Virus record (IMG/VR): IMGVR_UViG_3300027659_000012
Source: an uncultured virus (IMG/VR IMGVR_UViG_3300027659_000012)
Taxonomy: Duplodnaviria > Heunggongvirae > Uroviricota > Caudoviricetes
DNA length: 64,000 nucleotides
Strand: one strand, 5' to 3'
Below the pieces are notes generated by a model that had not been told where the DNA came from, made no database searches, and was given only the letters and a program-made list of their open reading frames with translations. Both the position numbers and the translations under genes were made by a program. Shown in pieces: positions 26,314 through 64,000 of this stretch (the stretch's first letter is position 1; each line of letters begins with the position of its first letter).

Positions 26314-26769
26314 TTATTCTACCATATTTTCCGGAACTTGTACATACATTTTTTTAATGTATTTTGCCAAGTGTCTACGAGTCACCTTTACTGCTATCCA
26401 ATCATTATAAAAATTGGCATCTAGGATAGCGTCAAGAGCAAACTGTTCCTTGGCCTCAAGATAGGCACATTCGCTTTTAGAGGCGCAAAGATGAATGATC
26501 TCCTTCTCAAAGTTCTCAGCTCCGAATTCCTTGATGTCAGCCAACAAAGGACCATTCGAGCCACAATATTTGCGCCAATCACTCTCGACCACGGAGCGAA
26601 CTTTCTTGCCCTTCCTCACCACGGTCCTCTTGCTCCAGAAGAATTTTTTGCCGATGTACTTCCTCCCATTCAGGAGGTTTCGAATCACATACACGAACCC
26701 ATAGATCAACTTTGGATCAAGTTCTCCCTCGGCAAATTCTATTGGTTTCCCTTGATAATACCATTGCAT
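26314..26769 (-). CDS. GIY-YIG endonuclease
   Basis: GFVYVI.N..NGRKYIGKK..WRKYCGS..YLE..QF..FYN. Confidence 0.8.
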   Translation of the reverse strand: MQWYYQGKPIEFAEGELDPKLIYGFVYVIRNLLNGRKYIGKKFFWSKRTVVRKGKKVRSVVESDWRKYCGSNGPLLADIKEFGAENFEKEIIHLCASKSECAYLEAKEQFALDAILDANFYNDWIAVKVTRRHLAKYIKKMYVQVPENMVE

Positions 26770-28667: not shown

Positions 28668-29390
28668 TCAAATTTTTGAATCTAATTTTGCTGCTCGTCG
28701 GCGATCCCACGCTTCACGCATTTTTTGCTTACTTTCTTCAGATTGTTTTTTCCCATACATTGGGTTACCTTCTCCGCTAACGCGTTTACTAATCTTTTCT
28801 CGTGTTTCTTCATCAATTGGATTTTCTTTATAGTAATCTATCATAATTTGTGATTGAGCTTCACGATTTTTAGTATCGCTCCAACGTTTTTTATTACATT
28901 CTGATGCATGAATGCGTTGTTCTTGGCTTACCCATTCTTCATATCTTTCCCGACGAGTATTCACCATCTTTTCATATACTGCTTTACTTCTATTGCGCTT
29001 CTCGTCATTTTGAAGCTGAATAGTTTCTAACGATTTTGGTTTACTCATTTTAAATTTAGTTTTTTCATTCAAGATATATCCTCCTTTATTTCTAAAATTA
29101 GAATTACCATTACTTTGGTTTATAAACGTATCATTGTTTTTAGCATCAATTTTATTTAGAAATCTAAATTCATAGAGTAATACATCTGCGGCGCTATCAA
29201 AGAATTTTATTCGAAGAATTTCAAAAGAAGTTATGCCATCCAATTTAATTAAGTTTTTAACTATTTTGGATGATGTCTGATATCCACCTTTAGTCATAAA
29301 ATTAGAAAAATTGGCATTTGAATACTTACAACCAGCATAATATCGTTGAGAAGGTATATGTTTAATAATATAAAAATATGGGTTTTGCAT
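28668..29390 (-). mobile_element. Free-standing homing endonuclease (GIY-YIG-like plus NUMOD3)
   Basis: PYFYII..YYAG, GYQTSS, GEGNPMYGKKQSEESKQKM; AT-rich; between nrdB and nrdA. Confidence 0.8.
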
Positions 29391-29427
29391 ATTCTTATTT
29401 TTAATACACGCTACCTCATGAGTATAT

Positions 29428-30423
29428 TTAATCGCCGAATAAATCTTCTTCTCCAAATGATTGATTCTTCTTAGCGTACTCAACTGGTCTAGATGAGAAA
29501 AAGTCGGTCATATTATTTCCGAGCAGTTCTTCGTCAAACCACACGGTCTTCGAGAGCAATTCTTGATCCACGTCGGTGAATGGCAAAGGCATCGAGATTT
29601 GTTTCATCGACTCGTTGATACGATTCTTGATGAACTCTTTTAGGATGGGTGCCGACAATGATTTCTCATCGATACCGTTTACCATCCAATCTACGATCTT
29701 ACTCTCGGCCAAGAAAGCCTCTTGCGCCGCACCTTGAATACGCTGCTCGAGTTCGGCATCAAACAATTCAGGATGCTCTTGGCGAATAGTATTGATGATC
29801 TGAATACCAACTAAGGCATGAATGTTTTCTTCATTGCGAGTGTATTTCACTTGCTGATCTGTATCCTTCATCACGTTCTTAAATCGAGCAAAGTGATTGA
29901 TGATGTAAAACTGAGAGAAGAGCGAAACGTTCTCGACGAAGAGAGTAAAGAGAATGATCGCGTATAGGTATTGCTTCTTCGAATCCTTATAGAAGCGATG
30001 AGTATACTTACGAAGGTACTTGACTCGACCTTGAATCCATTCGAGCTTAAGATTCTCCTCGAAGATGTCCTCTAATTCCAGGACAGAGAGGAGACGCTCA
30101 TATGCATTGTTATGAATCACCTCGGTATTTGCCATGACATAGCCAAGATCCTGAAGTGTCGGATGAGGAAGGTTCTCGCCAAGTTTAGCCCAGAAAGTTT
30201 TCACTGCCACTTCGATTTGACCGATGGCGGAGAGGGTACGCACAACGATCTCGCGTTCTTGATCGTTGAGTTCTACCTTAAATTGCTGGATGTCACTCTT
30301 GAAATTAAATTCTTTGTCGGTCCAAAAACCATCGTGCATGGCCTGAATGAACTGCTCGGCCCAAGGGTAACGATTTGGCTTTCTACTGATCTGCTCTTCG
30401 AATATGCTGTATTGGTTGTTCAT
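29428..30423 (-). CDS. nrdB: Class I ribonucleotide reductase beta subunit
   Basis: EVIHNNAY, VENVSLFSQF, EENIH, DFFSSRPVEY. Confidence 0.95.
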   Translation of the reverse strand: MNNQYSIFEEQISRKPNRYPWAEQFIQAMHDGFWTDKEFNFKSDIQQFKVELNDQEREIVVRTLSAIGQIEVAVKTFWAKLGENLPHPTLQDLGYVMANTEVIHNNAYERLLSVLELEDIFEENLKLEWIQGRVKYLRKYTHRFYKDSKKQYLYAIILFTLFVENVSLFSQFYIINHFARFKNVMKDTDQQVKYTRNEENIHALVGIQIINTIRQEHPELFDAELEQRIQGAAQEAFLAESKIVDWMVNGIDEKSLSAPILKEFIKNRINESMKQISMPLPFTDVDQELLSKTVWFDEELLGNNMTDFFSSRPVEYAKKNQSFGEEDLFGD

Positions 30424-33595: not shown

Positions 33596-34420
33596 TTAAA
33601 TTTTCTCTACTGCATTGAGCCATTTGCGATATGACTTGCCATCGCTGGCCTCGACGATGATATAGTTTGGTCCACACTTTGAAATGGTTCCGCTGAGATC
33701 CGTTCCGATGATATTGACTCGATCATTGACCGAGAATAGTTCTCCGTGAACATATGCCTCACGCGTCTCGGATATAGTCTCGAGCTGGATATGTTTGCGA
33801 AAGCTGTAGGACTCTTTAAGCCCCATTCCGGCACGCACTGCGTTGAACAGTTCACGCACCTCGCCGAATCCCTTTGGAACTCCTTTGGCAAAAGATTCTA
33901 AATCGTTCGCTTTTGCTGCATCGCGCATCTTAGTCGAACTCATTCCCTCGGCTCCATCGGAATCGGGATCGCGTTGATTGTTACTGACAACGTTGATGCC
34001 ATCCGAGAATTCGTAGGTACCATGAGAGGCATGAACTCCATTGTAGCGATTTAAGAGCGTCTCAAATTCCTTGACGCGATCGCTACCACAAACCAATGTG
34101 AGCTTGGTGAATCCTTGTTTGTTCAACTTGACCGCCGCGTCCAACACAGTTTTGATGTGCTTATCCTCGATGATGTTGCGACCATACTTAGGAAAGATCT
34201 TGCGCAAGAATTTGATCTTATCTTCGTAAGAAAGAGGGTTCTTCTTAGGATCATGTGTCTGCGAGGCAAAGATCGCATATTTTTTACCTTGAGCTTCCTT
34301 TACGACCTTCTGAAAGAGTGTCTCGTGACCGATATTCGGCGGCTGGAATCTACCAAAGGTAATCACGATCTCATTGATGCGTGATTCGGTAAATGTCTTA
34401 AATGATTTCAATTGTCCCAT
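33596..34420 (-). CDS. HIGH-motif (cytidyltransferase-like) nucleotidyltransferase
   Basis: FGRFQPPNIGH, KNPL, GSDR, RDPD..MSSTKMR. Confidence 0.85.
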   Translation of the reverse strand: MGQLKSFKTFTESRINEIVITFGRFQPPNIGHETLFQKVVKEAQGKKYAIFASQTHDPKKNPLSYEDKIKFLRKIFPKYGRNIIEDKHIKTVLDAAVKLNKQGFTKLTLVCGSDRVKEFETLLNRYNGVHASHGTYEFSDGINVVSNNQRDPDSDGAEGMSSTKMRDAAKANDLESFAKGVPKGFGEVRELFNAVRAGMGLKESYSFRKHIQLETISETREAYVHGELFSVNDRVNIIGTDLSGTISKCGPNYIIVEASDGKSYRKWLNAVEKI

Positions 34421-40536: not shown

Positions 40537-41610
40537 TTAATTTTCTTGCTCGGGGTTAGAGATTTCTTCTACTGATTCTACGATCATCTCGCGCTGACCG
40601 ACCTGGAATTTATCCTCGATGAACTTGGCGAATGTGGTCTTGGAGAAGATGGTTTCCCAGAAATCCTTGGTCATGGTCTGAGCTTCACGAAGGTTGCCGG
40701 TCAATTCTACCTTATTCAATGGATCATAGCCGGTGTACCAACCATTCTTTGGCTTGACAACGAATCCACCTTGCAATGCAATCTCGAGCAGACCGCTCCA
40801 TTTTTGAATACCACCAGTCCATGAGACAGAGATAGGAATCTTGGACTTTTCTTTGACGAAGCGAGACTTCTCGATGTTGATGATGAAGTGATAGCCTTGA
40901 ATTTCGGTGCCGTCTTTGTCTTGCTGACGACCGATGATCCAGACATTGTCGGCCGAGTACATGATGCCAGTGCCGCCAGAAACGACGGACTTGGAATACA
41001 TTTCCTGGGTTTGATAGGTATGATTGATTGCCAAGAGAGGCACATTCTTCATGGTCAAGTAAGGTGTCGCCATACGGAAAAGACCCTTCAGAGACTTGGC
41101 GCGTGTCATATCGGCGACACTCTTCTCGTTCAGTGCATCTTCCATTTCTTTCTTGGAGGCAAGGTTGCCGACCGAGTCGACGATGATGATAACCTTATCC
41201 TCACGAGAGATGGTGTTGAGCTGATGAACCAGATCGAACTTGAGCTCCTCGATATCCTTGATTGGTGTATGAAGCACACGACTGGTGTCGATGCCAAACG
41301 ATTCGAAATAGGATTGCGGGGAACCAAACTCGGAGTCATAGAACATCAGGATGGCTTCAGGATACTTCTTGAGGTATGCCGCTCCCATGAGCAAGGCGAA
41401 CGAGGTCTTGAAGTGCTTTGATGGACCAGCCAAGACTGTGAGGCCAGAGGTGAGTCCTCCGTCAATAGCACCAGACAGTGCCACGTTAATCATCGGCACC
41501 GCAGTGGTGGTGATGTCTTTTGCAGCATAGAAGATGCTGTCGGTGAGTACCGCACTCTCGGTGATACGAGAGTTCTTTCTTAGTTTTTCGAGTAGTGTGT
41601 TTGTTGCCAT
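40537..41610 (-). CDS. uvsX: RecA-like recombinase UvsX
   Basis: AGPSKHFKT, YDSEFG, DSVGNLASKKE, EKSRFVKEKSKIP. Confidence 0.95.
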   Translation of the reverse strand: MATNTLLEKLRKNSRITESAVLTDSIFYAAKDITTTAVPMINVALSGAIDGGLTSGLTVLAGPSKHFKTSFALLMGAAYLKKYPEAILMFYDSEFGSPQSYFESFGIDTSRVLHTPIKDIEELKFDLVHQLNTISREDKVIIIVDSVGNLASKKEMEDALNEKSVADMTRAKSLKGLFRMATPYLTMKNVPLLAINHTYQTQEMYSKSVVSGGTGIMYSADNVWIIGRQQDKDGTEIQGYHFIINIEKSRFVKEKSKIPISVSWTGGIQKWSGLLEIALQGGFVVKPKNGWYTGYDPLNKVELTGNLREAQTMTKDFWETIFSKTTFAKFIEDKFQVGQREMIVESVEEISNPEQEN

Positions 41611-41656: not shown

Positions 41657-42703
41657 TTATAAAAAGAATGAATCGAGAGAATTATTTTCGATGGTCGGCG
41701 CAGAGGTAGCATCGATTCCTGTCCAATGAGGATAGAATTCGCGAGAAAGGTGAACTGACTGAGGCTTCTCCATCTTGGCAAAGTCTAGCTCACCGATTGA
41801 ATTGGCCAAGTAATCCGTCCAGCGAATCAGTTTTGCCCGAGTCGCGATACGTTCTACTTCATTGGCAAATACTCGTCTGCATTCATTTCGTTGCTCCCAG
41901 GAGCCATAGAAAGGTTGTCCTTTATAGTAGCCAGTTTTCGGTAGCTTACGAGAAGGATTCTCGATCAAGAGCGGTTCATAGATCGAGACGTCATCGATTG
42001 GCAATGCCTCGACCGCATCGACATATCGTTTGACCAGATCCTTGGTATTCTGGACATGATCCGAGGAGATTCTACAAAGGTGATGGCGAATGTCAATGTT
42101 GCCAAAGTAGCATTCCAGAGCTTCGACTTCTTTGACAGGAATGCAATTCTCGATACCGTCATTGATCACACCATTTAGTGTCTTGAACGGAATCGAATTG
42201 ACCGTCCAACCCGGACGATACATACAGATCGAATGAGAATCGCCGATCACTACCTTATTAGTTTTATGAGGGAACTTTACGGTAGGCGCATGGATATGCA
42301 TTCGCTTTAGGTTCTCCATATCCACCTCGAGCCATTCGGGTTGAATCTCCTTATTGTTTTCCTTTGCCTTGAGGATGCGTTCGATGAGCATATCATGATA
42401 CGGAGGGAAATCACATGCTAAAGAGATGACTCGTCCTTTGAACTGAGAGAATGCCTTGACGTTGGCGACGTTAGAATATGCCTGCAGTCCTCCAAAAAGA
42501 TTTAGAGAACCGAACCAATCGTTTCCGTGATAGACATAGAGGGTGTCGTATTGGTTATAGTCCTCGAGCTTACCGCCAAAGTTGATGTCAATATCTACGC
42601 CGAGTTCACGAATCATATCTGCATAGATGACACCTTGAGAGGAGCGATGCGAGGTGGGTCGATCAGAGATCGAATTGAAAGGGCAACTGAGTAGTGCTTT
42701 CAT
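41657..42703 (-). CDS. SGNH-like protein in the DNA-modification cluster
   Basis: VIGDSHS, FGNIDIRHH, SVHLS motifs. Confidence 0.5.
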   Translation of the reverse strand: MKALLSCPFNSISDRPTSHRSSQGVIYADMIRELGVDIDINFGGKLEDYNQYDTLYVYHGNDWFGSLNLFGGLQAYSNVANVKAFSQFKGRVISLACDFPPYHDMLIERILKAKENNKEIQPEWLEVDMENLKRMHIHAPTVKFPHKTNKVVIGDSHSICMYRPGWTVNSIPFKTLNGVINDGIENCIPVKEVEALECYFGNIDIRHHLCRISSDHVQNTKDLVKRYVDAVEALPIDDVSIYEPLLIENPSRKLPKTGYYKGQPFYGSWEQRNECRRVFANEVERIATRAKLIRWTDYLANSIGELDFAKMEKPQSVHLSREFYPHWTGIDATSAPTIENNSLDSFFL

Positions 42704-42738
42704 GTGAGTATTCTATCTTAAATCGGGGTGAATGTAAA

Positions 42739-43728
42739 TTACTTTTTTAAAGAAAATTCTTTAGGGAATATCCAACTATATGGGATTCGTTTGGTCGGAG
42801 ATTTGACTCCATGAGAGATGGCAATGTGCTTATAGAAAAAGCACGTTTTATCCTCGATGTTGAGCATCTTCTGAGAGGTCATTGGATTTCGAGAATCCTC
42901 ACAAAGGATTTGCATCTGCTCTAACCAAAGGCGACACATATCATTTTCAGCAATGAATTGTCCATCTCCATCGATCGAGTATTTCGTCTTGCCATTCACA
43001 TTCTTTCCGCCGAATACTTGAAACAATCCGTCGAAATGTCCGGTGCCGCCATAGAGTACACTCTCAGGATCGACGAGATTCGGAAATGACATGGCAAGGT
43101 AACGTGCTGCATTTTTACAAGGATAGAGTGGGGAACGAAATCCTTGTTCTTCCTTGAAATGCTTCTCCATCAATTTAGCGAATTCCATCATGGTGTATGG
43201 ACGCTCGCGATTCTCGAGATGATGAGCCATGGCCTCGGCCGCTTTCAACGGTCCAGTTAATAACCAGTCCTTGACGTTCGTATTGAGCGGATAATAGATC
43301 TGAAACAAATCGTTTCGAGCATGCCGATCATTGACAAACTTCTCACGAGTAGATTCAACACCATTCTCGATCAGATGCGTCAGAGTCCCCCAGTGTTCAT
43401 TGGTGAATGAGAAGACGAGCGTATACCAAAGAATGTCCTTCAGGTCAGTCATGGTACGCATCAGGTCACAGAAGGGATGCTCGTGCCAATGCAGTCTATG
43501 AGAGAAGATCTGATAATCCTCGGCCAGCAACTTGTCCTCACGCTTGTCGAATGCATGGCAGAACTCAAAGAACTTGTCGAGTCTCTGATCCAATGTCCAG
43601 CCGCGCATCCAACTATCTAAAGGCTTCTTGCCATCCTTGAGCGGGACAGTGAGGTCTGTACCTAGATATGTGATGTTGGTGTATTTCGTTCCGTCCTCAA
43701 TGAAGTCTTCAAGTGTATTATTGTGCAT
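42739..43728 (-). CDS. aGPT-Pplase / amino acid:DNA transferase-like protein 2
   Basis: Paralog of 45382..46581 (NIEDKTC against NVEDVCC; LYGGTG against YYGSNA). Confidence 0.5.
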   Translation of the reverse strand: MHNNTLEDFIEDGTKYTNITYLGTDLTVPLKDGKKPLDSWMRGWTLDQRLDKFFEFCHAFDKREDKLLAEDYQIFSHRLHWHEHPFCDLMRTMTDLKDILWYTLVFSFTNEHWGTLTHLIENGVESTREKFVNDRHARNDLFQIYYPLNTNVKDWLLTGPLKAAEAMAHHLENRERPYTMMEFAKLMEKHFKEEQGFRSPLYPCKNAARYLAMSFPNLVDPESVLYGGTGHFDGLFQVFGGKNVNGKTKYSIDGDGQFIAENDMCRLWLEQMQILCEDSRNPMTSQKMLNIEDKTCFFYKHIAISHGVKSPTKRIPYSWIFPKEFSLKK

Positions 43729-44602
43729 CGTTCTTTTTCCAGTCTCGATATGAATCGGTATTGTCTATGATTGATTTATCATGAAGGATCGGATCGGTCC
43801 CCACGTTCCACATCAAGACGCGCCGACCGCTATTCTTTGGAATCCATTTCCAGACTTTTGCATCGTAAGAGTCGACAGTAGGAAATGGAGGCAGATTTTC
43901 TGGCTTCTCACTCTGAGGGAAATCAAGCGGTTCGCTGATAACATCGGCTCGTCCGAGTTCACCGGCTTTTAGGTTTCGGGCCACGGCAACGCATGTAAAC
44001 TTGGCATTCGGCCAGGCAATCTGAAGCGCCCGGGATAATACTCCGGTCGAGATGGCCACGTAGACCTCATCCGGTTCAGGAATAGTCGAGGCAGCATGCA
44101 CGATGGCTGCAGTAGCCAATTCGTGTTTCAGACCAAGAGGAATGAAGTATGCTCCATTGTCGGCTGCCCACTTCTTGGCGTATAGGTTTAGATTGGGCAT
44201 GGCCGCGATTCGCTCAAAGATCACCTTGGCTCCTCGCTCGATGCAGCACGCCTGATGAACCGAGATGCGCTTGGAGCTTGGCATGAAGAGTACGATCTTC
44301 TTTTCAGGATGGCGCTGAGCGACATCACACAGAGATACACCGGCCAGACCCACACGTGGTTGGCAATATACCAACGTATCTGCCTTGACTTTCGACATCA
44401 GCAAATCGCCGGCTCGAGTCTTGGTTCCGACAGTCAGATCATCTCGAACCACCAAAACACCCTCGTGCTCCACTACCACAGGATTTGGGTTATATGGCAC
44501 CCAACCTTCGCAGAGTGAAAGGTAGTATTCCTTTGCATCCTCTGGGCTCATGAGTCCAATATCTTTATTGAATCCGTCAATGACGTGTGTATCGTGCGAC
44601 AT
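43718..44602 (-). CDS. PLP-dependent fold-type II enzyme (cysteine synthase / TrpB-like)
   Basis: VVRDDL..GTKTR (PLP Lys), FIPLGL, VAISTGVL, YDAKVW, WNVG. Confidence 0.7.
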   Translation of the reverse strand: MSHDTHVIDGFNKDIGLMSPEDAKEYYLSLCEGWVPYNPNPVVVEHEGVLVVRDDLTVGTKTRAGDLLMSKVKADTLVYCQPRVGLAGVSLCDVAQRHPEKKIVLFMPSSKRISVHQACCIERGAKVIFERIAAMPNLNLYAKKWAADNGAYFIPLGLKHELATAAIVHAASTIPEPDEVYVAISTGVLSRALQIAWPNAKFTCVAVARNLKAGELGRADVISEPLDFPQSEKPENLPPFPTVDSYDAKVWKWIPKNSGRRVLMWNVGTDPILHDKSIIDNTDSYRDWKKNDAQ

Positions 44603-44667
44603 GCTAGTATTCTACACTAAATATCTACGCTTGTAAATACTTTTTTACAATTTCATGATCTTTCTGG

Positions 44668-44675
44668 TATAAATA
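44668..44675 (+). promoter_or_regulatory. T4 late promoter TATAAATA
   Basis: Exact motif upstream of the homing endonuclease. Confidence 0.75.
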
Positions 44676-44738
44676 GTACTGTTCGCGGAATTGCCGTTCC
44701 CAACAGCTCTACAATCAAACATTAACCCCAATCGCAGC

Positions 44739-45464
44739 ATGAAATTATTTATAGTCTACCTTATCACGTATCAAGGTAATAAGCTTCCTCCATTCTATAT
44801 TGGCTCTACTTCTTTAGAGAAATTCAATAAAGGATATTCTGGATCAGTATCGTCCAAAGAATACAAAACTCTTTGGAAAACCGAATTGAGAAGTAACCCG
44901 CACCTATTTAAGAGAAGAATAGTTAGTTCATACTTTACTCCCGAGGAAGCAATATCTGCAGAATCTAGGTTTCATTACGTTCTTCGAGTGAATAGAAATC
45001 CGCTTTATGCAAATAAGTGCATAGCCGGAAATTCCCCTAGATCAATGGGATTCGTTGGTCATGGAGAGAATAACCCGATGTTTGGTCACGTCTATAGCGA
45101 TGAAACCCGAGAAAAGATGCGAAACGCAAAACTTGGAAGTAAAGCTAAAGAAAGTACTAAAGAAATTTGGAGGAAAAATCGTAAAGGTCACTGGACCGGA
45201 GACAAAAATCCGACTAAAACAAATCTAACAATGTTAGGTAAAAAGCATTCTGAGGAATCTAAGAAGAAAATGTCAGAATTAGCAAAGGGCAAATATGCTG
45301 GAGATAAAAACCCAATGTATGGAAAGTCAGCAATGAAAGGAAGAAAACATTCTCCAGAAACAAAGGCGAGAATGGCAGAGGCTAGGAAAAAGTACTGGGA
45401 GAATAAGTCCAATCTGCATATTCAGGAAGTTGTTTCACCTTCCTTATGTACTGAATCTCAGTAA
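44739..45464 (+). mobile_element. Free-standing homing endonuclease (GIY-YIG-like plus NUMOD3 repeats), antisense to the cluster
   Basis: IVYLITY..FYIGST; NPMFG / NPMYG..HS.E repeats; AT-rich; overlaps the neighbour's 3' end. Confidence 0.85.
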
Positions 45465-46581
45465 GACCAGCATTTTTGATAACTTGATCTTTGGTGTAAA
45501 CCCCATCAAAGTCATTGAAACTTTTAACTAGACCCAAATCTAGCATGGCTTTTTGTCTTCCATATGGGTGAATAATCTTACTTGAATTCCATATTTTATC
45601 TGCATCCAAGTGATTATACGAATCGCCTGATTTGAAATAATTGGTGAGATACCTTATGAAGTCACAACAGACATCCTCGACGTTATATGGGAATCCACCT
45701 GTGTCGGCAAAAAGATTCATCATGATCTCGTCGACTAACTGCTCGGATTTCATCTTCGTCTTGGCCGTTGCCAGATATGAGATGCTTTGAATCGCGTTGC
45801 TACCGTAATAGAATAGCGATTCCTTATTCACGAACTGAGGAAACCAATCGGCGACATCTGCCACGATCGCGGCATACTGGAAATGGTACTGACGAAGATT
45901 GTTCTTAACGTTCCAGTTCAGCATGAATGAGCCAATCTCGCGAAGATCTTTCTTTCCTCCTTTGACTAAGAAATCTGCCAACTCTCTGGCTAAGCGAGGA
46001 GCAAATTCACAAAGGTAATAGTCTCCACCTTTCTTGTAGCCTTCGACTGGTTTAGGAAATGCCGGAAACTGATAGCCCACTGAGGTGTAGAATGAATTCT
46101 GCTCGTGACGAACGATGTCACACATCTTCTCGATGGTGTCGGCCCGATAGAGCTTAAAGAGAAGCGTATTGTGATAGCCACTCGGCTTCAAGGCATAGTT
46201 AATACCAGAACCGCATACCCGATGAAGGATGAAGACGTAGAGCCATTCGGCCAAACCAAAGACATCTTGCTTTCCGCTCCAGTTATTGGCAACCTCGACT
46301 CGCTGATCGAAGACTTGCCCGGCCTTCATCTTCTCCCAATAAGGGTGACTCTCACTCCAGCCATGAAAGCAATCATGAACGATCTGAGAGAAACCCGCAT
46401 AGGCACGTTCTACTACGTCATACAACTCGACCTTCTCCATCAGGTCATCACCAATATTCGAATCGGCATGGCTAATCATGCCATAAGGAGCATGATCGCT
46501 AACGTTGCATTTCTCTTGCTGCTCTTTTGCCAAGGCATAGTAGCGTAAGAATTCGTCGTAGTATTCCGTCTTTTCGATCAT
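45382..46581 (-). CDS. aGPT-Pplase / amino acid:DNA transferase-like protein 1
   Basis: FQYAAIVADV..YYGSNAIQSI..VEDVCCDFIRY resembles the HhH-derived aGPT-Pplase pattern; likely start MIEKTE. Confidence 0.55.
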   Translation of the reverse strand: MIEKTEYYDEFLRYYALAKEQQEKCNVSDHAPYGMISHADSNIGDDLMEKVELYDVVERAYAGFSQIVHDCFHGWSESHPYWEKMKAGQVFDQRVEVANNWSGKQDVFGLAEWLYVFILHRVCGSGINYALKPSGYHNTLLFKLYRADTIEKMCDIVRHEQNSFYTSVGYQFPAFPKPVEGYKKGGDYYLCEFAPRLARELADFLVKGGKKDLREIGSFMLNWNVKNNLRQYHFQYAAIVADVADWFPQFVNKESLFYYGSNAIQSISYLATAKTKMKSEQLVDEIMMNLFADTGGFPYNVEDVCCDFIRYLTNYFKSGDSYNHLDADKIWNSSKIIHPYGRQKAMLDLGLVKSFNDFDGVYTKDQVIKNAGLTEIQYIRKVKQLPEYADWTYSPSTFS

Positions 46582-46582
46582 A

Positions 46583-47026
46583 TTATTCAGTGATATAGAC
46601 CGCAGTCTCACGACCGCCACACTTGAAGTTAATAACTGCATCTTCGCCGGTCCAGCGAATTGCCGAGATTTGCTTCGAAGCTTCAGCGCTTGTTGGACGA
46701 TTGAGAAAGTCACGACCTTCGACTTGGCCATCCATACCACCTCGGCAATACGAGACGATGAATGAGCAATAGTTGATCATGTCCTTGGCGCTATCCTCGA
46801 CGCTTTCGAAGTTCGGGACATAAGAAGGATCATGTTCCATTGCAGCGATCACACTGCGAAGGCGAAGCATCTTGGCATGGACGATATCCAGCAAGGTCGA
46901 AACCCCGCGAGGATAATAGTCGGCTTGCTTAATGATGCTATGCGAGTTCTGATAATCGTTACCCTTCTTACGTTGAAGGTTGGCGCATTCGTCTAGTACC
47001 TTGATTGATTCCTTATCGTTTTCCAT
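46583..47026 (-). CDS. Nucleotide-modification-associated all-alpha NTP-PPase-like protein (Nmad1 / DUF1599-like)
   Basis: KKGNDY..KMLRL..ESVEDSAKDMINY. Confidence 0.7.
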   Translation of the reverse strand: MENDKESIKVLDECANLQRKKGNDYQNSHSIIKQADYYPRGVSTLLDIVHAKMLRLRSVIAAMEHDPSYVPNFESVEDSAKDMINYCSFIVSYCRGGMDGQVEGRDFLNRPTSAEASKQISAIRWTGEDAVINFKCGGRETAVYITE

Positions 47027-47069
47027 GTTGGGAGTATTTTATATTGTTTTGAGTAATTTGTACACATCT

Positions 47070-47801
47070 TTATGCATCGCCTAATGCTTTTTGTGCCATG
47101 CGCTGGGTCTCAAGATGCTCGTCTTGTTTGTCGATGAATTTTTGAATCAGATGAAAGTGGCAAGAATAGACATGAAGGCTACCTACTTGCCAAGTGATAT
47201 CACCTGCGATCAGATCTCGACCAAGCTTTTGATTGTAATCGGCGACCAGCTTATCTAGCACAAATTTCTGCCAGGCATAGTCATTGCGATATCCGAAGAT
47301 GACATCATTCGAACGCATCTGCACGACGCAATGAATCTTGCCATCGCGAATCAGGTATTGAACCGCATTGGTGCAGATGAAGTCGCTCATACCACCTTTG
47401 CACCAATCAGTGTGCATAGTAGGACGAGTGTAGATAGTGACTGCTCGACGAGAATTTGGGCTGACCACTAACTCGTTGAGGACAGAGAGATATTGCCCAT
47501 GATTCTGCTTGCCAAAGACCAGATAGCCATAGTTTGAATTGATCACTCCATCCGGAGTAGCCACAGATTTCCAGATCTGAGGAACCTTGCCAGGAATATC
47601 ATTGACATTCAAAGATTCCGACAGGTACCAATCCAATTCGTGCTGGATATACTCATGATTGAGTTCACCGAAGATTGCCGGAGCATCAGCCAAAAAGCTG
47701 GCACCTACCAGCTCGATGGTGCTGGTACCGGTTTTATCCTCGATAAGATTGCCCGAGCGAAGTTCGGAGATGAAGTGTTGCTGAATATCTTTTGTTGTCA
47801 T
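47070..47801 (-). CDS. gp42: dCMP hydroxymethylase
   Basis: Colinear with recalled T4 gp42: DKTG..TIE..GASF, INSNYG, IYTRP.M, MSDFICTN, MRSNDV.FGYRNDYAWQ, GSLHVY. Confidence 0.92.
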   Translation of the reverse strand: MTTKDIQQHFISELRSGNLIEDKTGTSTIELVGASFLADAPAIFGELNHEYIQHELDWYLSESLNVNDIPGKVPQIWKSVATPDGVINSNYGYLVFGKQNHGQYLSVLNELVVSPNSRRAVTIYTRPTMHTDWCKGGMSDFICTNAVQYLIRDGKIHCVVQMRSNDVIFGYRNDYAWQKFVLDKLVADYNQKLGRDLIAGDITWQVGSLHVYSCHFHLIQKFIDKQDEHLETQRMAQKALGDA

Positions 47802-53733: not shown

Positions 53734-55038
53734 TTATTGTATCGGTGTTCCCTTTATTTTTTCTTTCTCATTTAAAATAATATACTTTCTTAAAGTACGA
53801 ATTTCTCTAATTAAATCTGATAGCATATTATAAGGTTTATCTTTCCATCTATGCCCATCACTTGCAAATGGTTCATCACCGCACACATTATTCCAAAACG
53901 CTTGACGAACCAATGACGGAATATCAATGGGATAAGCGATGATGTGTTTGATACCTTCTGCCATTTCATCATCACGTTTATGATTTTCAAGATTGCCTAC
54001 AGGAAGTTCAAAGAGAGTCTTACCGGGAATACCTTTTAGTTTGCCCATTTTTATGATATGTTGAGATTCTCTTTTATAAAGATCATCTAAATCTTCACTC
54101 ATATGACGATTAGACATTTTCAGGCTTTTAATTTCTTTTTGATAGTCTTCGATAGTTTTTGTCATAGTAGATTCGGTTGGTTGTTTTTCAAAGCAGGTCA
54201 TACATGTATCATATACTTCAGTGAAAAGGGTGTCGTTCATGGTTTCAGTTTTGGTTGGATTTGTCAGCGCGTTGAACTCCGCCTCGGTCAGATACTCACC
54301 ATTGATATACCATGCTTCGTAGCCGTCCGAATGTGCGACAGCAGGGCCGTCTGGGTTGTGGAGCTTGCCGTTGATATAGTGCGCTTCATAGCCGGCCGGA
54401 CCTGTGACGGCAGGGCCGTCTGTCCGGTGGATTTTGCCGTTGATATACCATGCTTCGTAGCCGCTCGCAAATATGGCAGCAGGGCCGTCTAGCCGGTGCA
54501 AGATGGTCATATCCCTGTCGGGATAATAACGGGTGTTGCCGTTTTCGATTTGGATATATTGTATTTCCATGGTTTGGTTTGGTTGGGGATTTGTGAGCGC
54601 GTTGAACTCAGCTTCGGTCAGTTCTTCGCCCTGTATACACCATTCGTTGCAGCCGTTCGCCCGTGTGACAGCAGGGCCGTTTGGATTGTGGAGTTCGCCG
54701 TTGATCCACCACGCTTCGTAGCCGTTCGCCCGTGTGACAGCAGGGCCGTTAGGGTTGTGGAGTTTGTTGTTGATATACCATGCTTCGTAGCCGTCCGGAC
54801 CCGTGACAGCAGGGCCGTTAGGGTTGTGGAGTTCGTTGTTGATATACCATTGTTTGCTGCCGTTTGTCTCTGTGACAGCAGGGCCATTTGGGTTGTGGAG
54901 TTTCCCGTTGATATACCACGCTTCGTAGCCATCCAAACTTATTACGGCAGGACCGTCGAGCCGGTGGTAGATGGCCATCGCCTTGTCGGAATAATAGCAA
55001 GTAAAGCCGTCTCCGCATAGGATGTATTGTGTTGTCAT
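53734..55038 (-). CDS. H(R/N)xxGPA-repeat protein, mosaic
   Basis: Tandem ~22-aa LHNPNGPAV..GYEAWYING repeats. Confidence 0.7.
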   Translation of the reverse strand: MTTQYILCGDGFTCYYSDKAMAIYHRLDGPAVISLDGYEAWYINGKLHNPNGPAVTETNGSKQWYINNELHNPNGPAVTGPDGYEAWYINNKLHNPNGPAVTRANGYEAWWINGELHNPNGPAVTRANGCNEWCIQGEELTEAEFNALTNPQPNQTMEIQYIQIENGNTRYYPDRDMTILHRLDGPAAIFASGYEAWYINGKIHRTDGPAVTGPAGYEAHYINGKLHNPDGPAVAHSDGYEAWYINGEYLTEAEFNALTNPTKTETMNDTLFTEVYDTCMTCFEKQPTESTMTKTIEDYQKEIKSLKMSNRHMSEDLDDLYKRESQHIIKMGKLKGIPGKTLFELPVGNLENHKRDDEMAEGIKHIIAYPIDIPSLVRQAFWNNVCGDEPFASDGHRWKDKPYNMLSDLIREIRTLRKYIILNEKEKIKGTPIQ

Positions 55039-55102
55039 GGTTTCGTTTTGTTGTTGGCTGTTAGGTGAGTCTTGTGCCCCGGCGGTGCCAGCGCACGAGC
55101 GT

Positions 55103-55867
55103 TCATCCGAGGATGTTGCCGATTCGATCCCATATGGTTGGACGTTCGATTTTCGCGGGTCTGCGGCTTAGCCATTCCTTTTCGGTTTCCCACCCGTAGT
55201 CGTGTTTAACCAGTCCGTTGAGACTGCGGCTGATTCTCATTATTTGGTAATCGAATCCGAATCCACATTTTACGACGTAATATCCCTTCTCGCAAAGAGG
55301 CGAACAAGGCGCGGATGGACAATCCGCCTTCAGTGTAAGCGCGTTGAACTCCGCTTCGGACAGTTCTTTGCCGTTGATAACCCATGATTTGTAGCCGTCG
55401 GGCCACGTGACGGCAGGACCGTCTGGATTGTGGAGGAGTCCGTTGATATAGTGTGCCGTGTAGCCGTTCGGACCTATGGCAGCAGGGCCGTCTAGCCGGT
55501 GCAAGATGGTCATATCCCTGTCGGAATAATAATAGGTGTTGCCGTTATCGTTTTGGACATATTGTATTTCCATGGGTTGGTTTGGTTGGGGATTTGTGAG
55601 CGCGTCAAACTCCTCCTCGGTCAGTTCTTTGCCGTTGATCCACCATTGTTTGTAGCCGTTCGGATATGTGACCGCAGGGCCGTCTGGGTTGTGGCGTTCG
55701 CCGTTGATCCACCAAAATTTGGAGCCATGGTTCCCTATGATTGCAGGACCGTCTGCCCTGTGGGTGATCGTCATCGCCTTGTCGGCAAAATAGTAGGTAT
55801 TTCCGTCGGCGTGTTTGATATATTGTGTCTTCATGGTTTCAGTTTTGGGTTGGGTGGTTGGTGTCAT
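55103..55867 (-). CDS. H(R/N)xxGPA-repeat protein
   Basis: Same repeat family. Confidence 0.7.
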   Translation of the reverse strand: MTPTTQPKTETMKTQYIKHADGNTYYFADKAMTITHRADGPAIIGNHGSKFWWINGERHNPDGPAVTYPNGYKQWWINGKELTEEEFDALTNPQPNQPMEIQYVQNDNGNTYYYSDRDMTILHRLDGPAAIGPNGYTAHYINGLLHNPDGPAVTWPDGYKSWVINGKELSEAEFNALTLKADCPSAPCSPLCEKGYYVVKCGFGFDYQIMRISRSLNGLVKHDYGWETEKEWLSRRPAKIERPTIWDRIGNILG

Positions 55868-56115
55868 AGTGAAAAGCGCAAACGCTTCCACCACGGACGG
55901 CGGACTGTCTCACGAAAGTCTGTGGTGATCCGATGCCATCTGCGCGAATGCTCGTTCGCCGAGTGAAGGTCCTCATACTCGTATGAGACGCGCCACCGCC
56001 CCCATTGCGAGGGTGCCTCGACAGGGTTGGATAGGTATCGCCCACCGCAGGCTTTTAGTATCTCATCAAACTGTCCGAGTTTACCATCAGGTATTGGTTC
56101 GTTGTAGCATTTCAT
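55864..56115 (-). CDS. Hypothetical protein
   Basis: Start and stop overlap those of its neighbours. Confidence 0.5.
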   Translation of the reverse strand: MKCYNEPIPDGKLGQFDEILKACGGRYLSNPVEAPSQWGRWRVSYEYEDLHSANEHSRRWHRITTDFRETVRRPWWKRLRFSL

Positions 56116-57290: not shown

Positions 57291-57716
57291 TTAGTCATTA
57301 ATTGGTTTAAGAACCTCTTTGATGTTCTTGGCACCGTATTGATTGGCCGAATGAATATACGTCCGCATCGGAGGCATACCCGCTTCTTGCCACTTGCGAA
57401 GAATGAATTCCGCACATGATTTGCCAGTCTTCTCACGAAGGTTGCCATACTCGATGACACCGCTAGTGGGTTGAGTCACATCATGATAATGACGAATATG
57501 CTCGAAGTGAAGATCATGATCAAAGGACACGGTGTCAGGAAGCCCATTCTTGTTGATGTAACGAACGAACGAGTCGTAGTTGCGAACGATTTGCCACTGG
57601 TTATTCGCGACACCTGATGCATCGATCAGGTTGATATCCCTATCACTAAGGTATGCGCCATTAGGATAACGCACGTCATCCAAGAATAGGTTATAAGGCT
57701 CGTATGTATTTTCCAT
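57291..57716 (-). CDS. Cyclic-phosphate-processing receiver-like domain protein
   Basis: LFLDDVR.P, VSFDHDL, KTG, IHSAN..GAKNI. Confidence 0.7.
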   Translation of the reverse strand: MENTYEPYNLFLDDVRYPNGAYLSDRDINLIDASGVANNQWQIVRNYDSFVRYINKNGLPDTVSFDHDLHFEHIRHYHDVTQPTSGVIEYGNLREKTGKSCAEFILRKWQEAGMPPMRTYIHSANQYGAKNIKEVLKPIND

Positions 57717-61533: not shown

Positions 61534-62019
61534 TTAAGCTTCGCCGAATGCCTTCGTTGCAAGACCGTGATTACCTTCATGAGAAGGTGCCGTCCATCCC
61601 TCGGGCTTGACGAGGTCGGGAAGACCGAGTGGGTTCGGGCGAGATGCTTTGATGCCGACATTCTTGTTCATGTTTGCCTCCATCACCGCATACCATGCCT
61701 TGCTGAAATCTACCTTCAACAGATCGAGGGTGCCTACGGCAACTACAACCAAATCGATTAGGCTATCGATAACTTCCTCGGCATTCTTCTCAACGATCGC
61801 CTTCTGGCCTTCGTCTACTTCTTCTTGAAGGAAGTTGAAGCGAAACTTGATGAATTCTACGAGTTGATCAGGAGTCAACTTATCAATGGCCTCTTGCACT
61901 CCATACTTGTTGTGCATCATATTCATGTCATCGGCAACTACTGTGATGGCGCCAAGATTATTTTGTATGAGATGCTGAATGCATTCCCATTGCGATTGTG
62001 CTGCTTCTTGTTTTGTCAT
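61534..62019 (-). CDS. MazG-like dNTP pyrophosphatase (dUTPase/dCTPase-like)
   Basis: LQEEVDE, EVIDSLIDL, VMEANMNK, KPEGW. Confidence 0.8.
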   Translation of the reverse strand: MTKQEAAQSQWECIQHLIQNNLGAITVVADDMNMMHNKYGVQEAIDKLTPDQLVEFIKFRFNFLQEEVDEGQKAIVEKNAEEVIDSLIDLVVVAVGTLDLLKVDFSKAWYAVMEANMNKNVGIKASRPNPLGLPDLVKPEGWTAPSHEGNHGLATKAFGEA

Positions 62020-62046: not shown

Positions 62047-64000
62047 TCAACCGAAGAAATCCTCGAGACTCGAACGAGGTTCAGGACTCCATCCGATGGC
62101 ATCCAGAATCAGGACCAATGGGTCAATGAATGCCTTCTGAAACTGCATATCATAGTCGATGTACTTGTGAAGTCCCAGTTCTTTTGGAAGTTTGTCAGGA
62201 AACGAAATGACATTCTCATTCAAGGAGTTTGGCATCTTGAGATATGAATAGCGAATACGCTCGCCATTCTGAATCTGAGGATACTTCTTATCGAGACCGG
62301 CATCCTTGAGTGCTCGATTGTAGAGCAATGCACCACGACAATGAAGTGGAGTGCCTTTGGTGTAGATGGTGCTTTTGTTTGCCCACTTGCGAATGCTTGA
62401 TAATCCACGAGGAAAAGAGATCTCCTCGGGTTCCATCGAACCGAATTGAATTCTAAATTCATTCAGAGCTCGCTGAGTGGCAGACTCGTCACCAGTCATA
62501 ATCACCTTGAACATCTGCTTGAAAGCATCTCGGCAAATTGCAGGAGTCGAACTCTTAATTGCCTCGATGCCAACCATCTTGATCTTTGGCTCGGCATATC
62601 GAACACCTTCGTTGTCATGCACGTTCATGATGTAGCGCTTCTTGGCGGTCCAGATGGCACGATCGGCGATGGCTTCTCGCTTCATCACCATGGTATTCTT
62701 GAAAGCATTGGTCAATTTAGCGAGCTTTGCGAATGCCTCGGCCAGGATGGGTTCGATACCTTTCGAGCCGAATTCATCCAGGAAATTGATAGGATTGACT
62801 GGTTTGAAGTGATCCACGATATCCTTCACAGAGACATAGAGCGAATCGGTGTCCATTGCGATGATGCGATCCTTAGGCTTTTTATCCTTTAGCATATTGG
62901 AAAGCCAATCATTGAGAGTCTCTTCACCCCAACGATTGACTAACTGACCCGAGAGTGTGATACCCTCGGCGATGGCAAGATTGAAGTAGCGAAAGTATCG
63001 ATTACCCATGGCACCATAAAGACTATTCAAAAGAATCTTGACCGTCATCTGCTCGGTCTCGAGGCGAGCGATATCAGACTCGACCGCGAAATAGGTCTTG
63101 CGATCGCCTTTGTCCACCGACTCGAGCTTTTGTTTGGCATCCAACATAGCACGCTTGATCTTGACTCGCTTGTTGTAAAGCTCCTCGACGATTTCAGGAA
63201 TGATGCCCATCTTATCTCGACGAAAGCATGCGCCATTTGCGGCCATCGCCAGGTTTGGTTCAGGAGATAGACACTCACCTTTGTTGGCGAGCACATAGTC
63301 CGGAGAAATACCGGGCACGTGCATGTGAGGAACCAAGGTTTCCGGACTCATGTTGTATTGAATGATCAGGTTCGGGTAGAGTGAGTTAAGGTCGAAGGAC
63401 AATACCCAATCATACATGCCCGGAACTGGGTCTTTGACATATCCGCCGGGATAGTCTGCCTTAAAAGAGTTCTCGCTCTGAGGAACTGCGATGTGCTTCT
63501 GCGCCAATCGACGAAAGATAATCGAATCCCAGATTGCCGTAGTGCCGAGAGTTTCTTGATAATTTACACCACCGAGATAGGCCATATTGAAGACCAGATT
63601 GATCAGACCGAGCTTTGCCTCGAAGCGATCGACTAATTCTACGTCCTTGATGTTGTAGTCGACGTAAGTCTGGAAATCATTCTCGTAGAGTTTGATCAAG
63701 GAACCGTGTTCGCCGTAATCAAGCTTACGTTCACCGAGGACGACCTGCGCGATATGATCCAGCTTGTAGGATTCTTGGGCGCCATATGTGTAACCGAACT
63801 TTTTGAAGAGTTCAAGGTAATCGAGCTGCTGGACACCAGAGATATCGAAGAACATCATCTCGCGACCTTTGACAACCACTGTCTTCTGTTCGACCGACGA
63901 CCAAGGCGAAAGACGTTTGGCTGTGTCTGTACCGAGGACGCGTGAGATGCGATTCACGATGTAAGGAACATCGAAGCCACGAATATTCCAGCCAGTGATG
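62047..64000 (-). CDS. gp43: Family B DNA polymerase gp43 (5' end outside the window)
   Basis: TGWNIRGFDVPYI at the window edge; SFDLNSLYP, KILLNSLYG, DTDS, KKRY. Confidence 0.96.
   Translation of the reverse strand, partial: ITGWNIRGFDVPYIVNRISRVLGTDTAKRLSPWSSVEQKTVVVKGREMMFFDISGVQQLDYLELFKKFGYTYGAQESYKLDHIAQVVLGERKLDYGEHGSLIKLYENDFQTYVDYNIKDVELVDRFEAKLGLINLVFNMAYLGGVNYQETLGTTAIWDSIIFRRLAQKHIAVPQSENSFKADYPGGYVKDPVPGMYDWVLSFDLNSLYPNLIIQYNMSPETLVPHMHVPGISPDYVLANKGECLSPEPNLAMAANGACFRRDKMGIIPEIVEELYNKRVKIKRAMLDAKQKLESVDKGDRKTYFAVESDIARLETEQMTVKILLNSLYGAMGNRYFRYFNLAIAEGITLSGQLVNRWGEETLNDWLSNMLKDKKPKDRIIAMDTDSLYVSVKDIVDHFKPVNPINFLDEFGSKGIEPILAEAFAKLAKLTNAFKNTMVMKREAIADRAIWTAKKRYIMNVHDNEGVRYAEPKIKMVGIEAIKSSTPAICRDAFKQMFKVIMTGDESATQRALNEFRIQFGSMEPEEISFPRGLSSIRKWANKSTIYTKGTPLHCRGALLYNRALKDAGLDKKYPQIQNGERIRYSYLKMPNSLNENVISFPDKLPKELGLHKYIDYDMQFQKAFIDPLVLILDAIGWSPEPRSSLEDFFG

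Follow-up and report, generated by a model that had tools for sequence, protein, structure and literature searches.

What does a T4-like phage do with hydroxymethylcytosine when the place of the T4 beta-glucosyltransferase gene is taken by other enzymes? The question is raised by positions 41657 to 47801 of a 64,000-nt stretch of DNA (the whole of which we call the window) from an uncultured Caudoviricetes virus (IMG/VR record IMGVR_UViG_3300027659_000012). The window is a T4-like replication and nucleotide metabolism arm, encoding gp32, gp59, ligase, RNase H, NrdAB, gp41, UvsX, primase, and DNA polymerase. Between the synteny landmark uvsX (40537 to 41610, minus strand; T4_UVSX_C, E = 3.6e-11; RecA) and a homolog of T4 gene 42 (47070 to 47801) lie six genes, all confirmed at the coordinates given below. 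The window runs gp41, a small open reading frame (ORF), uvsX, the cassette, and the gp42 homolog; since the T4 order in the same place is 41-40-uvsX-segA-b-gt-42, the cassette occupies the slot of the T4 beta-glucosyltransferase, as an earlier interpretation of the bare sequence (the sequence-only reading) had held. That reading proposed a cytosine hypermodification pathway, and the candidate stands. We give a probability of roughly 0.5 to the whole scheme, in which 5-hydroxymethylcytosine (5-hmC) would be hypermodified after replication by the logic of the known thymidine pathways but without a DNA kinase; some modification of DNA 5-hmC by the cassette, of whatever kind, we consider quite probable.

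The choice of cytosine follows from the hydroxymethylase (47070 to 47801, minus strand; 243 aa), which matched Pfam Thymidylat_synt (PF00303; E = 7.9e-19) and shares 55.6% identity with T4 gp42 across 96% of its length. In an alignment with T4 gp42 and Escherichia coli ThyA, it carries Asp at the position of ThyA N177 (RNDYAW) and keeps Asp at the position of ThyA D169 (RSND). A further Asp precedes the catalytic Cys by three residues (SDFIC), giving an acidic residue at the L143 position, which flanks an alignment gap and was assigned via the common SDF[IM]C motif. A 2026 paper (PMC13326640) links Asp at the N177 position to a preference for dCMP, and reports that RB69-type homologs with D169N yield 5-hydroxy-dCMP and not 5-hydroxymethyl-dCMP (5-hm-dCMP). 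Because the window enzyme has Asp where those homologs have Asn, we assign it to the hydroxymethyl type, and the possibility that it is a 5-hydroxy-dCMP synthase was ruled out. By homology and by both diagnostic residues, the protein is a predicted T4-type cytosine hydroxymethylating enzyme, in agreement with the earlier call of a gp42-like enzyme with a cytosine-specifying Asp.

Genes for nucleotide supply were found in the same window. Adjacent to the hydroxymethylase, as is usual for this family, is a gene for an Nmad1/DUF1599-family protein (46583 to 47026, minus strand; 147 aa). The window protein itself reached only 18.3 bits with PF07659 (E = 0.0029; cutoff, 25), whereas 15 of 19 family members matched that model at E ≤ 0.1 (best, 6.2e-7), so that the Nmad1-like label holds at the family level. 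It also matched phrog_1485 (6.8e-13) and phrog_18404 (8.2e-11), and a search of its profile against PDB sequences gave no matches. A MazG/PRA-PH-type nucleotide pyrophosphohydrolase (61534 to 62019, minus strand; PF01503, 8.4e-07; phrog_671, 2.4e-18) adjoins the primase and DNA polymerase genes, and in many related loci its gene is linked with DNA polymerase, primase, Nmad1, and hydroxymethylase; it is likely a gp56-like dCTPase that supplies dCMP to the hydroxymethylase. Within phrog_18404 ("hydrolase," 264 positions), the MazG-type protein matches positions 53 to 139 and the Nmad1 protein positions 168 to 254; therefore, MazG-Nmad1 fusions exist in other phages. The gene for ThyX, previously suggested as a separate source of dTMP, was confirmed (Thy1, 1.2e-38).

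Two genes of the cassette encode the proteins that we call A (45382 to 46581, minus strand; 399 aa from its ATG) and B (42739 to 43728, minus strand; 329 aa). The analysis of A used the 402-aa in-frame reading from 45382 to 46590, such that E305 and C309 below correspond to E302 and C306 counted from the ATG. When the predicted structure of A was compared with the viral models of BFVD, ranks 1, 4, 5, and 7 to 9 were proteins of the aGPT-Pplase superfamily and the rest were unnamed. Rank 1 was a 60%-identical protein automatically named "Amino acid:DNA transferase domain-containing," a name likewise carried by a 54%-identical homolog in the A and B searches; ranks 4, 5, and 7 to 9 were amino acid:DNA transferase (AADT), Pplase1, SP10 5-hydroxymethyldeoxyuridine (5-hmdU) DNA kinase, and PhiW-14 kinase-helical-domain proteins. 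For B, eight named rows of the same superfamily stood in ranks 1 to 12, with a homolog of A at rank 4. Both predicted structures show the two-helical-bundle, helix-hairpin-helix (HhH)-DNA-glycosylase-like fold. Foldseek comparison of the A model with the PDB gave no row at E ≤ 0.001, and searches of the A and B profiles against PDB sequences gave chance-level rows only.

A Glu-x3-Cys motif is invariant in both proteins (E305/C309 in 25 of 25 sequences for A; E292/C296 in 25 of 25 for B). In the best local hhalign alignments, themselves not significant, it aligns with E243/C247 of PUGT (PaMx11 gp46). C247 of PUGT is described in PMC11472151 as the catalytic nucleophile that attacks C6, and Cys and Glu are both given as essential in M6 gp51 and ViI gp247 in PMC8989533. 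By predicted fold and catalytic motif, A and B thus belong to the aGPT-Pplase superfamily, in a separate clade that lies outside Pfam AADT and HMUDK_hel and that curated models do not cover. Their homologs number in the hundreds, metagenomic and unnamed (918 clusters for A and 452 for B in the protein collection). The sequence-only reading had called the two genes paralogous and aGPT-Pplase-like and had suggested a hidden Markov model comparison with the aGPT-Pplase families. The Pfam models gave no match, and the viral structures did; superfamily membership is upheld, and membership in Pfam AADT or HMUDK_hel is not. Direct paralogy was not detected by BLASTP (no match) or hhalign (probability, 1%; E = 0.049). 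The kinship of A and B was seen through structure, each model matching the other's homolog, and through weak BLASTP bridges, B matching a few members of the A superfamily at 5e-5 to 1e-3.

Between A and B is the gene for a pyridoxal phosphate (PLP) enzyme (43718 to 44602, minus strand; 294 aa). It matched phrog_7093 (9.4e-39; residues 21 to 268 on positions 8 to 278 of 279), the same family as M6 gp52 (2.2e-159). An hhalign comparison with M6 gp52 gave a probability of 94.7% (E = 6e-8) over 213 columns, among them those of the C-terminal PFP..YD.K.WK..WN.G motif. ViI gp226 was matched only weakly, and so were cysteine synthases by the profile of the window enzyme (0.018). The protein gave no match to Pfam PALP even at E ≤ 10, whereas M6 gp52 matched it at 5.6e-10. 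Lysine K61 (VGTKTR) is invariant in 18 sequences; by its motif, it is the probable Schiff-base lysine for PLP. M6 gp52 is described in PMC8989533 as a PLP-dependent decarboxylase acting on glycinyl-thymine in DNA. The previous assignment to fold type II is a putative one, and the predicted protein is homologous to a decarboxylase that acts on DNA.

The last gene of the cassette encodes a two-part protein of 348 aa, C348 (41657 to 42703, minus strand; phrog_13881 and phrog_17781). Its first ~100 residues resemble T4 beta-glucosyltransferase, a likeness that had gone unnoticed. C348 reached 17.7 bits with PF09198, the model of that enzyme (E = 0.003; cutoff, 27), and 9 of 22 family members matched it, weakly. 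Comparison with the T4 protein by hhalign gave 52%, rising to 76.7% (E = 2e-5) with a broader profile, and only residues 1 to 98 were aligned, on residues 1 to 100. No region of C348 aligned with the UDP-glucose-binding half of the T4 enzyme, and a forced global alignment gave nothing. The remainder contains invariant GDSH, G-x-ID-x-RHH, LPKTG, and ME..SVH motifs. GDSH, G-N-I-D, and S-V-H are invariant across the family in the order of SGNH blocks I, III, and V; matches to Lipase_GDSL_2 were weak, comparison with E. coli TesA by hhalign was null, and the C348 profile found one chance row and no relative among PDB sequences. Hence, of the earlier "SGNH-like" label the GDSH motif stands and the comparisons with named SGNH families do not, leaving a putative SGNH assignment weakly supported.

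T4-type polymerase tails bind the sliding clamp. The C terminus of C348 (SLDSFFL, 41657 to 41680) resembles that of the window DNA polymerase (SLEDFFG, 62047 to 62070; both on the minus strand), and L-[DE]-x-F-[FL]-x is the C-terminal pattern of most C348 homologs, though not of window A, B, and the PLP enzyme; the C348 tail may therefore dock on the clamp. Prediction of a complex of A and C348 scored 0.00 (mark, 0.32) and was uninformative either way.

We then asked how these genes travel together in other viruses. A first scan of IMG/VR found 539 sites encoding a relative of A, the best 80 of which were examined; a second scan, in which seven aligned fused proteins served as the query, yielded 298 C348-like sites, of which 80 were examined. 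Among the 43 first-scan loci whose sequence extends 4.5 kb or more beyond A on the downstream side, C348 was present in all 43, the PLP enzyme in 39, and B in 30, arranged with A in five gene orders. In 35 of 47 loci, A was preceded by the hydroxymethylase and Nmad1 genes at an upstream distance of no more than 4 kb, and in a 99%-complete 160-kb relative (G002) these genes were ~10 kb from the cassette. In another phage group, 10 of the 80 second-scan loci had a compact C348-A-PLP-hydroxymethylase operon, and one locus (L111) had a true fusion. Fusions also define the seven clusters behind the second scan (639 to 790 aa), in which a C348-like N-terminal half (28 to 36% identity over ~320 residues) is joined to an A-like C-terminal half that keeps the Glu/Cys motif; when the single fused proteins P0291 and P0325 were used as queries for IMG/VR loci, none were found. 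The Asp/Asp signature of the hydroxymethylase (N177 and D169 positions) was present in all 48 first-scan loci with both positions readable, as well as in the compact operons, in a group with C348 only, and in Aeromonas phages 44RR2.8t and 25. The window UvsX is ~60% identical to the nearest cultured homologs (from Stenotrophomonas and Acidovorax phages), and neither a near-identical DNA search with the 6.1-kb interval nor tblastn with protein A gave a match in 50,697 phage records.

These contexts bear on where C348 acts. The sequence-only reading had the modified base "possibly then acylated," with C348 as the last step. Given that C348 accompanies A in all 43 loci, is fused to A-like proteins in seven clusters, and occurs without A beside gp42-type genes, a core function early in the pathway is more likely for it than a last tailoring step.

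The scheme that we favor would begin before replication with a well-supported step, in which the MazG-type and gp42-type enzymes would make 5-hm-dCMP for incorporation in place of C while ThyX provides dTMP. C348, as gene context alone suggests, would then act on 5-hmC in new DNA and convert its hydroxyl into a leaving group. The favored group would be an O-ester made by the Ser/His-containing domain, and the enzyme may work from the sliding clamp through its polymerase-like tail; ester-type activation by C348 is a tentative and rather doubtful proposal. By homology, A would flip the base, its conserved Cys would attack C6, and the departing group would leave an exocyclic methylene to which a free amino acid would add. 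PaMx11 gp46 and M6 gp51 carry out such chemistry on 5-phosphomethyl-dU. B, which occurs in about two-thirds of loci, would be an accessory paralog. Finally, again by homology, the M6-gp52-type enzyme would decarboxylate the DNA-bound amino acid to an amine, and the expected product would be an aminoalkyl- or aminoalkoxy-methylcytosine shielding the DNA from host nucleases. In its most specific form, C348 and the Pfam-less clade would make up a clamp-docked, kinase-independent "activate and substitute" machine that takes esterified 5-hmC to an amino acid and then to an amine; this version is conceivable, and we would not bet on it. A literature search, itself incomplete, found no paper describing AADT-type chemistry on cytosine.

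The absence of a kinase from this scheme follows the gene content. Pfam scans of 55 window ORFs identified no kinase and no glycosyltransferase family, in line with what had been noted for the window before; the sole signal was the subthreshold PF09198 match of C348. The 5-hmdU DNA kinase model PF18747 found nothing in five related records, including the 99%-complete one, in a weak test that also missed the control genomes. In G002, 123 ORFs over 0 to 96 kb contained no kinase or glycosyltransferase, a count that leaves out two large ORFs across locus boundaries. Its late region encodes, among tail fiber genes, a 134-aa APS-kinase-like protein, a sulfotransferase, GT1, GT2, and FkbM and TylF methyltransferases. 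The same genome carries host-like genes (CHASE2-adenylate/guanylate cyclase, RimK-type ATP-grasp, curli CsgG/CsgF, and a curlin-repeat protein), which with the tail fiber island lie at L090:7635-14525, L094:17716-19755, and L095:3667-13915.

Several observations weigh against the favored scheme. In G002, the GT1, GT2, sulfotransferase, and APS-kinase-like genes are 30 to 45 kb from the cassette and could have a role in DNA modification. A and B matched no Pfam model even at E ≤ 10, PF18724 (AADT) and PF18723 (HMUDK_hel) included, and had no PHROG match, whereas the controls ViI gp247, M6 gp51, PaMx11 gp46, Cr30 gp123, and Prince gp3 matched PF18724 at 3e-58 to 1e-08. Comparisons of their profiles with AADT and HMUDK_hel sequences were not significant (E = 0.12 to 0.59; for the clade 1 protein M6 gp55, 0.59 with A and 0.18 with B), and searches with both profiles of the ViI, PaMx11, M6, Cr30, and Prince genomes gave nothing at E ≤ 10. 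An exhaustive profile search placed 156 representative clusters in the A superfamily; 69 were scanned against Pfam, and one touched PF18724, at 19.3 bits (cutoff, 26.2). By language-model features, HMUDK_hel was present on 11 to 36% of the members of the nearest annotated clusters and AADT on 12 to 53%, and those nearest to A carry HMUDK_hel rather than AADT. Glu-x3-Cys also occurs in the clade 1 proteins of M6 and PaMx11, and PMC8989533 gives M6 gp55 as dispensable in vitro. Because of these HMUDK_hel-type neighbors, the clade 1 motif, and the dispensability of gp55, A could serve as a helper and not be the transferase. For the SGNH assignment of C348, 2 of 22 members matched Lipase_GDSL_2, at E ≥ 0.14. 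Linkage has its exceptions as well: 4 of 43 loci hold A and C348 without the PLP enzyme and without B, and among 31 second-scan loci flanked by 4 kb at either end, 6 had A, the PLP enzyme, and a thymidylate synthase homolog, 4 had the thymidylate synthase homolog only, and 21 had none of these, such that C348-like genes stood without A in 25.

Much of this would suit an explanation in which C348 itself is the group transferase on 5-hmC, adding an acyl group, sugar, or polyol depending on the phage, while A and B bind DNA and flip bases as helpers, in the manner of the helical domain of 5-hmdU DNA kinases, and the PLP enzyme trims or makes the donor or the group. It would account for C348-like genes that sit beside gp42-type genes without an A-like gene, for their greater number of clusters (1,917 versus 918 for A), and for neighbors that vary by clade, from an inositol-1-phosphate-synthase-like gene to an annotated solute symporter in 44RR2.8t. 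The resemblance of the C348 N terminus to the acceptor side of T4 beta-glucosyltransferase, the HMUDK_hel-type neighbors of A, and the loci with A and C348 alone point the same way. Nevertheless, a pure helper has less reason to keep invariant, in both A and B, a Glu-x3-Cys that is catalytic in AADTs. Moreover, the PLP enzyme that accompanies A in most loci is of a type that acts on DNA-bound amino acids, and C348 shows no recognizable domain of the kind with which known transferase families bind a donor. We regard this explanation as unlikely, albeit one to be taken seriously.

Two further accounts would move the substrate or the function elsewhere. Uracil derivatives are the substrates of all AADTs and gp52-type enzymes characterized so far, according to PMC8989533, and in G002 a dCMP deaminase gene is directly beside the hydroxymethylase. 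The true substrate might then be 5-hydroxymethyluracil, with 5-hm-dCMP deaminated to 5-hm-dUMP and thymine hypermodified as in M6 and ViI. A dCMP deaminase (cd) is an ordinary T4 gene, which counts against this idea; scans of 55 window ORFs turned up no deaminase family, the window ThyX makes ordinary dTMP, and all linked hydroxymethylases carry the cytosine-specifying Asp. The 5-hmdU DNA kinase used by all thymidine pathways was not found here either, in the weak PF18747 search. A uracil substrate is accordingly very improbable. It is also conceivable that modification goes no further than 5-hmC, with the helical proteins being glycosylase-like repair or antidefense factors and the PLP enzyme and C348 serving unrelated metabolism, as the structure matches that follow AADT (8-oxoguanine and 3-methyladenine glycosylases and a queuine salvage enzyme) might suggest. 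The tight, repeated linkage in several orders and fusions, always with a gp42-type gene nearby, the identity of the viral structure matches as hypermodification proteins rather than glycosylases, and the membership of the PLP enzyme in a phage-specific, DNA-acting family leave that account scarcely any probability.

Set beside the thymidine pathways of M6, ViI, PaMx11, and PhiW-14, the favored scheme of 5-hmC hypermodification shares a hydroxymethyl-pyrimidine made before replication by a thymidylate synthase homolog, a pair of proteins with the HhH-glycosylase fold and Glu-x3-Cys, a gp52-type PLP enzyme, putatively of fold type II, and genes that are clustered and sometimes fused. It differs in its base, cytosine, the specificity residue being Asp in all linked hydroxymethylases; in the position of A and B outside the Pfam AADT and HMUDK_hel models; and in that no P-loop 5-hmdU DNA kinase was found, the place of an obligate, sometimes fused partner being filled by C348 and its family, to which nothing in those pathways corresponds. 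With T4 gp42 and beta-glucosyltransferase, the cassette has in common the type of hydroxymethylase, the position between 42 and uvsX, and the N terminus of C348; unlike T4, it has AADT-like and PLP enzymes, and C348 does not match the UDP-glucose half and stays below the Pfam cutoff. The 5-hmC carbamoyltransferase system found by MetaGPA (PMC8670742) likewise decorates 5-hmC with a nonsugar group in uncultured phages, next to a gp42-type gene and with MazG-type and deaminase genes; it consists of a single TobZ-type carbamoyltransferase, to which no cassette protein is related. RB69 and DLP3, which arabinosylate 5-hydroxycytosine, are T4-like phages with a cytosine-specifying thymidylate synthase homolog and with a modification cluster in the same genome region. 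According to PMC13326640, they have Asn at the ThyA D169 position, giving 5-hydroxy-dCMP, which glycosyltransferases then decorate, whereas the window enzyme has Asp and the window yielded no glycosyltransferase family.

If the scheme is right, the consequences would be chemical as well as biological. To our knowledge, DNA hypermodifications of the amino acid or amine type occur only on thymine, and the known decorations of 5-hmC are sugars and carbamoyl. The phage DNA probably holds a chemically undescribed cytosine decoration. With AADT/PLP chemistry on cytosine, natural DNA bases would gain a new class, one common among aquatic T4-like phages; activation without a kinase would be a new enzyme activity on DNA, and esterification of 5-hmC in DNA would be a chemistry not described so far. 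Such bases bear on phage resistance to restriction and CRISPR, on sequencing, and on enzymatic tools for modified DNA.

Cultured phages make part of this accessible. Homologs of C348 were present in 43 phage records, including Aeromonas phages 44RR2.8t, 31, 25, phiAS4, and others, Stenotrophomonas phage IME13, and Tenacibaculum phages, and both 44RR2.8t and 25 have a gp42-type gene. A 2010 review (PMC2993671) lists 44RR, 31, and 25 as encoding genes 42 and 56 while lacking a glucosyltransferase, and raises whether such phages carry other modifications of Hm-dCMP. That question is now testable because cultured 44RR2.8t, 31, and 25 carry C348-family genes, and the clamp-docked form of the scheme, if true, would answer the fate of hydroxymethylcytosine in these three phages. 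In phage 25, C348 is a separate protein; in 44RR2.8t, it is the N-terminal half of a 795-aa protein (ORF233c). The C-terminal 429 residues of the 795-aa protein gave no significant match to the A profile (E = 0.14) or to clade 1 proteins (E = 0.045), and their likeness to aGPT-Pplase consists of two short motifs seen by eye.

The surroundings of C348 homologs offer further observations. The C348 neighbor in 44RR2.8t (L180:5408-6931) is annotated as a sodium:solute symporter. In phage 25 (L181:3776-5957), the C348 homolog follows two genes that are missing from 44RR2.8t; one of them has an N-terminal dinucleotide-binding motif that may be of the kind found in UDP-galactopyranose mutases. In the group with C348 only, C348 is followed by a gene (L109:9137-10324) with 43% identity (E = 4e-107) to gp121 of Caulobacter phage Cr30 (L002:8054-9235), which is annotated as inositol-1-phosphate synthase and is two genes from the true AADT gp123 (PF18724, 1.3e-52). 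DNA modification with a cyclitol might thus occur in two distinct contexts.

The gene content of the interval was as previously described except for one gene that had been overlooked, a GIY-YIG/NUMOD3 homing endonuclease on the plus strand (44691 to 45464; NUMOD3, 1.1e-16; phrog_10820 and phrog_314). It overlaps the 3′ end of A on the opposite strand and is present in 1 of 80 related loci, that locus being identical to the window; it is an insertion between A and the PLP gene, outside the pathway. Elsewhere in the window and with no link to the cassette are a cytidylyltransferase-like gene (33596 to 34420; phrog_395, 4.5e-67), a cyclic-phosphate-processing receiver domain (57291 to 57716; cREC_REC, 4.1e-16), and two adjoining ORFs with weak DUF6745 matches (53734 to 55894). 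T4 segA, likewise GIY-YIG, lies in the interval equivalent to that of the cassette, and the window has further endonuclease genes between nrdA and nrdB, at 26314 to 26769 (SegE-like) and 28668 to 29483 (NUMOD3).

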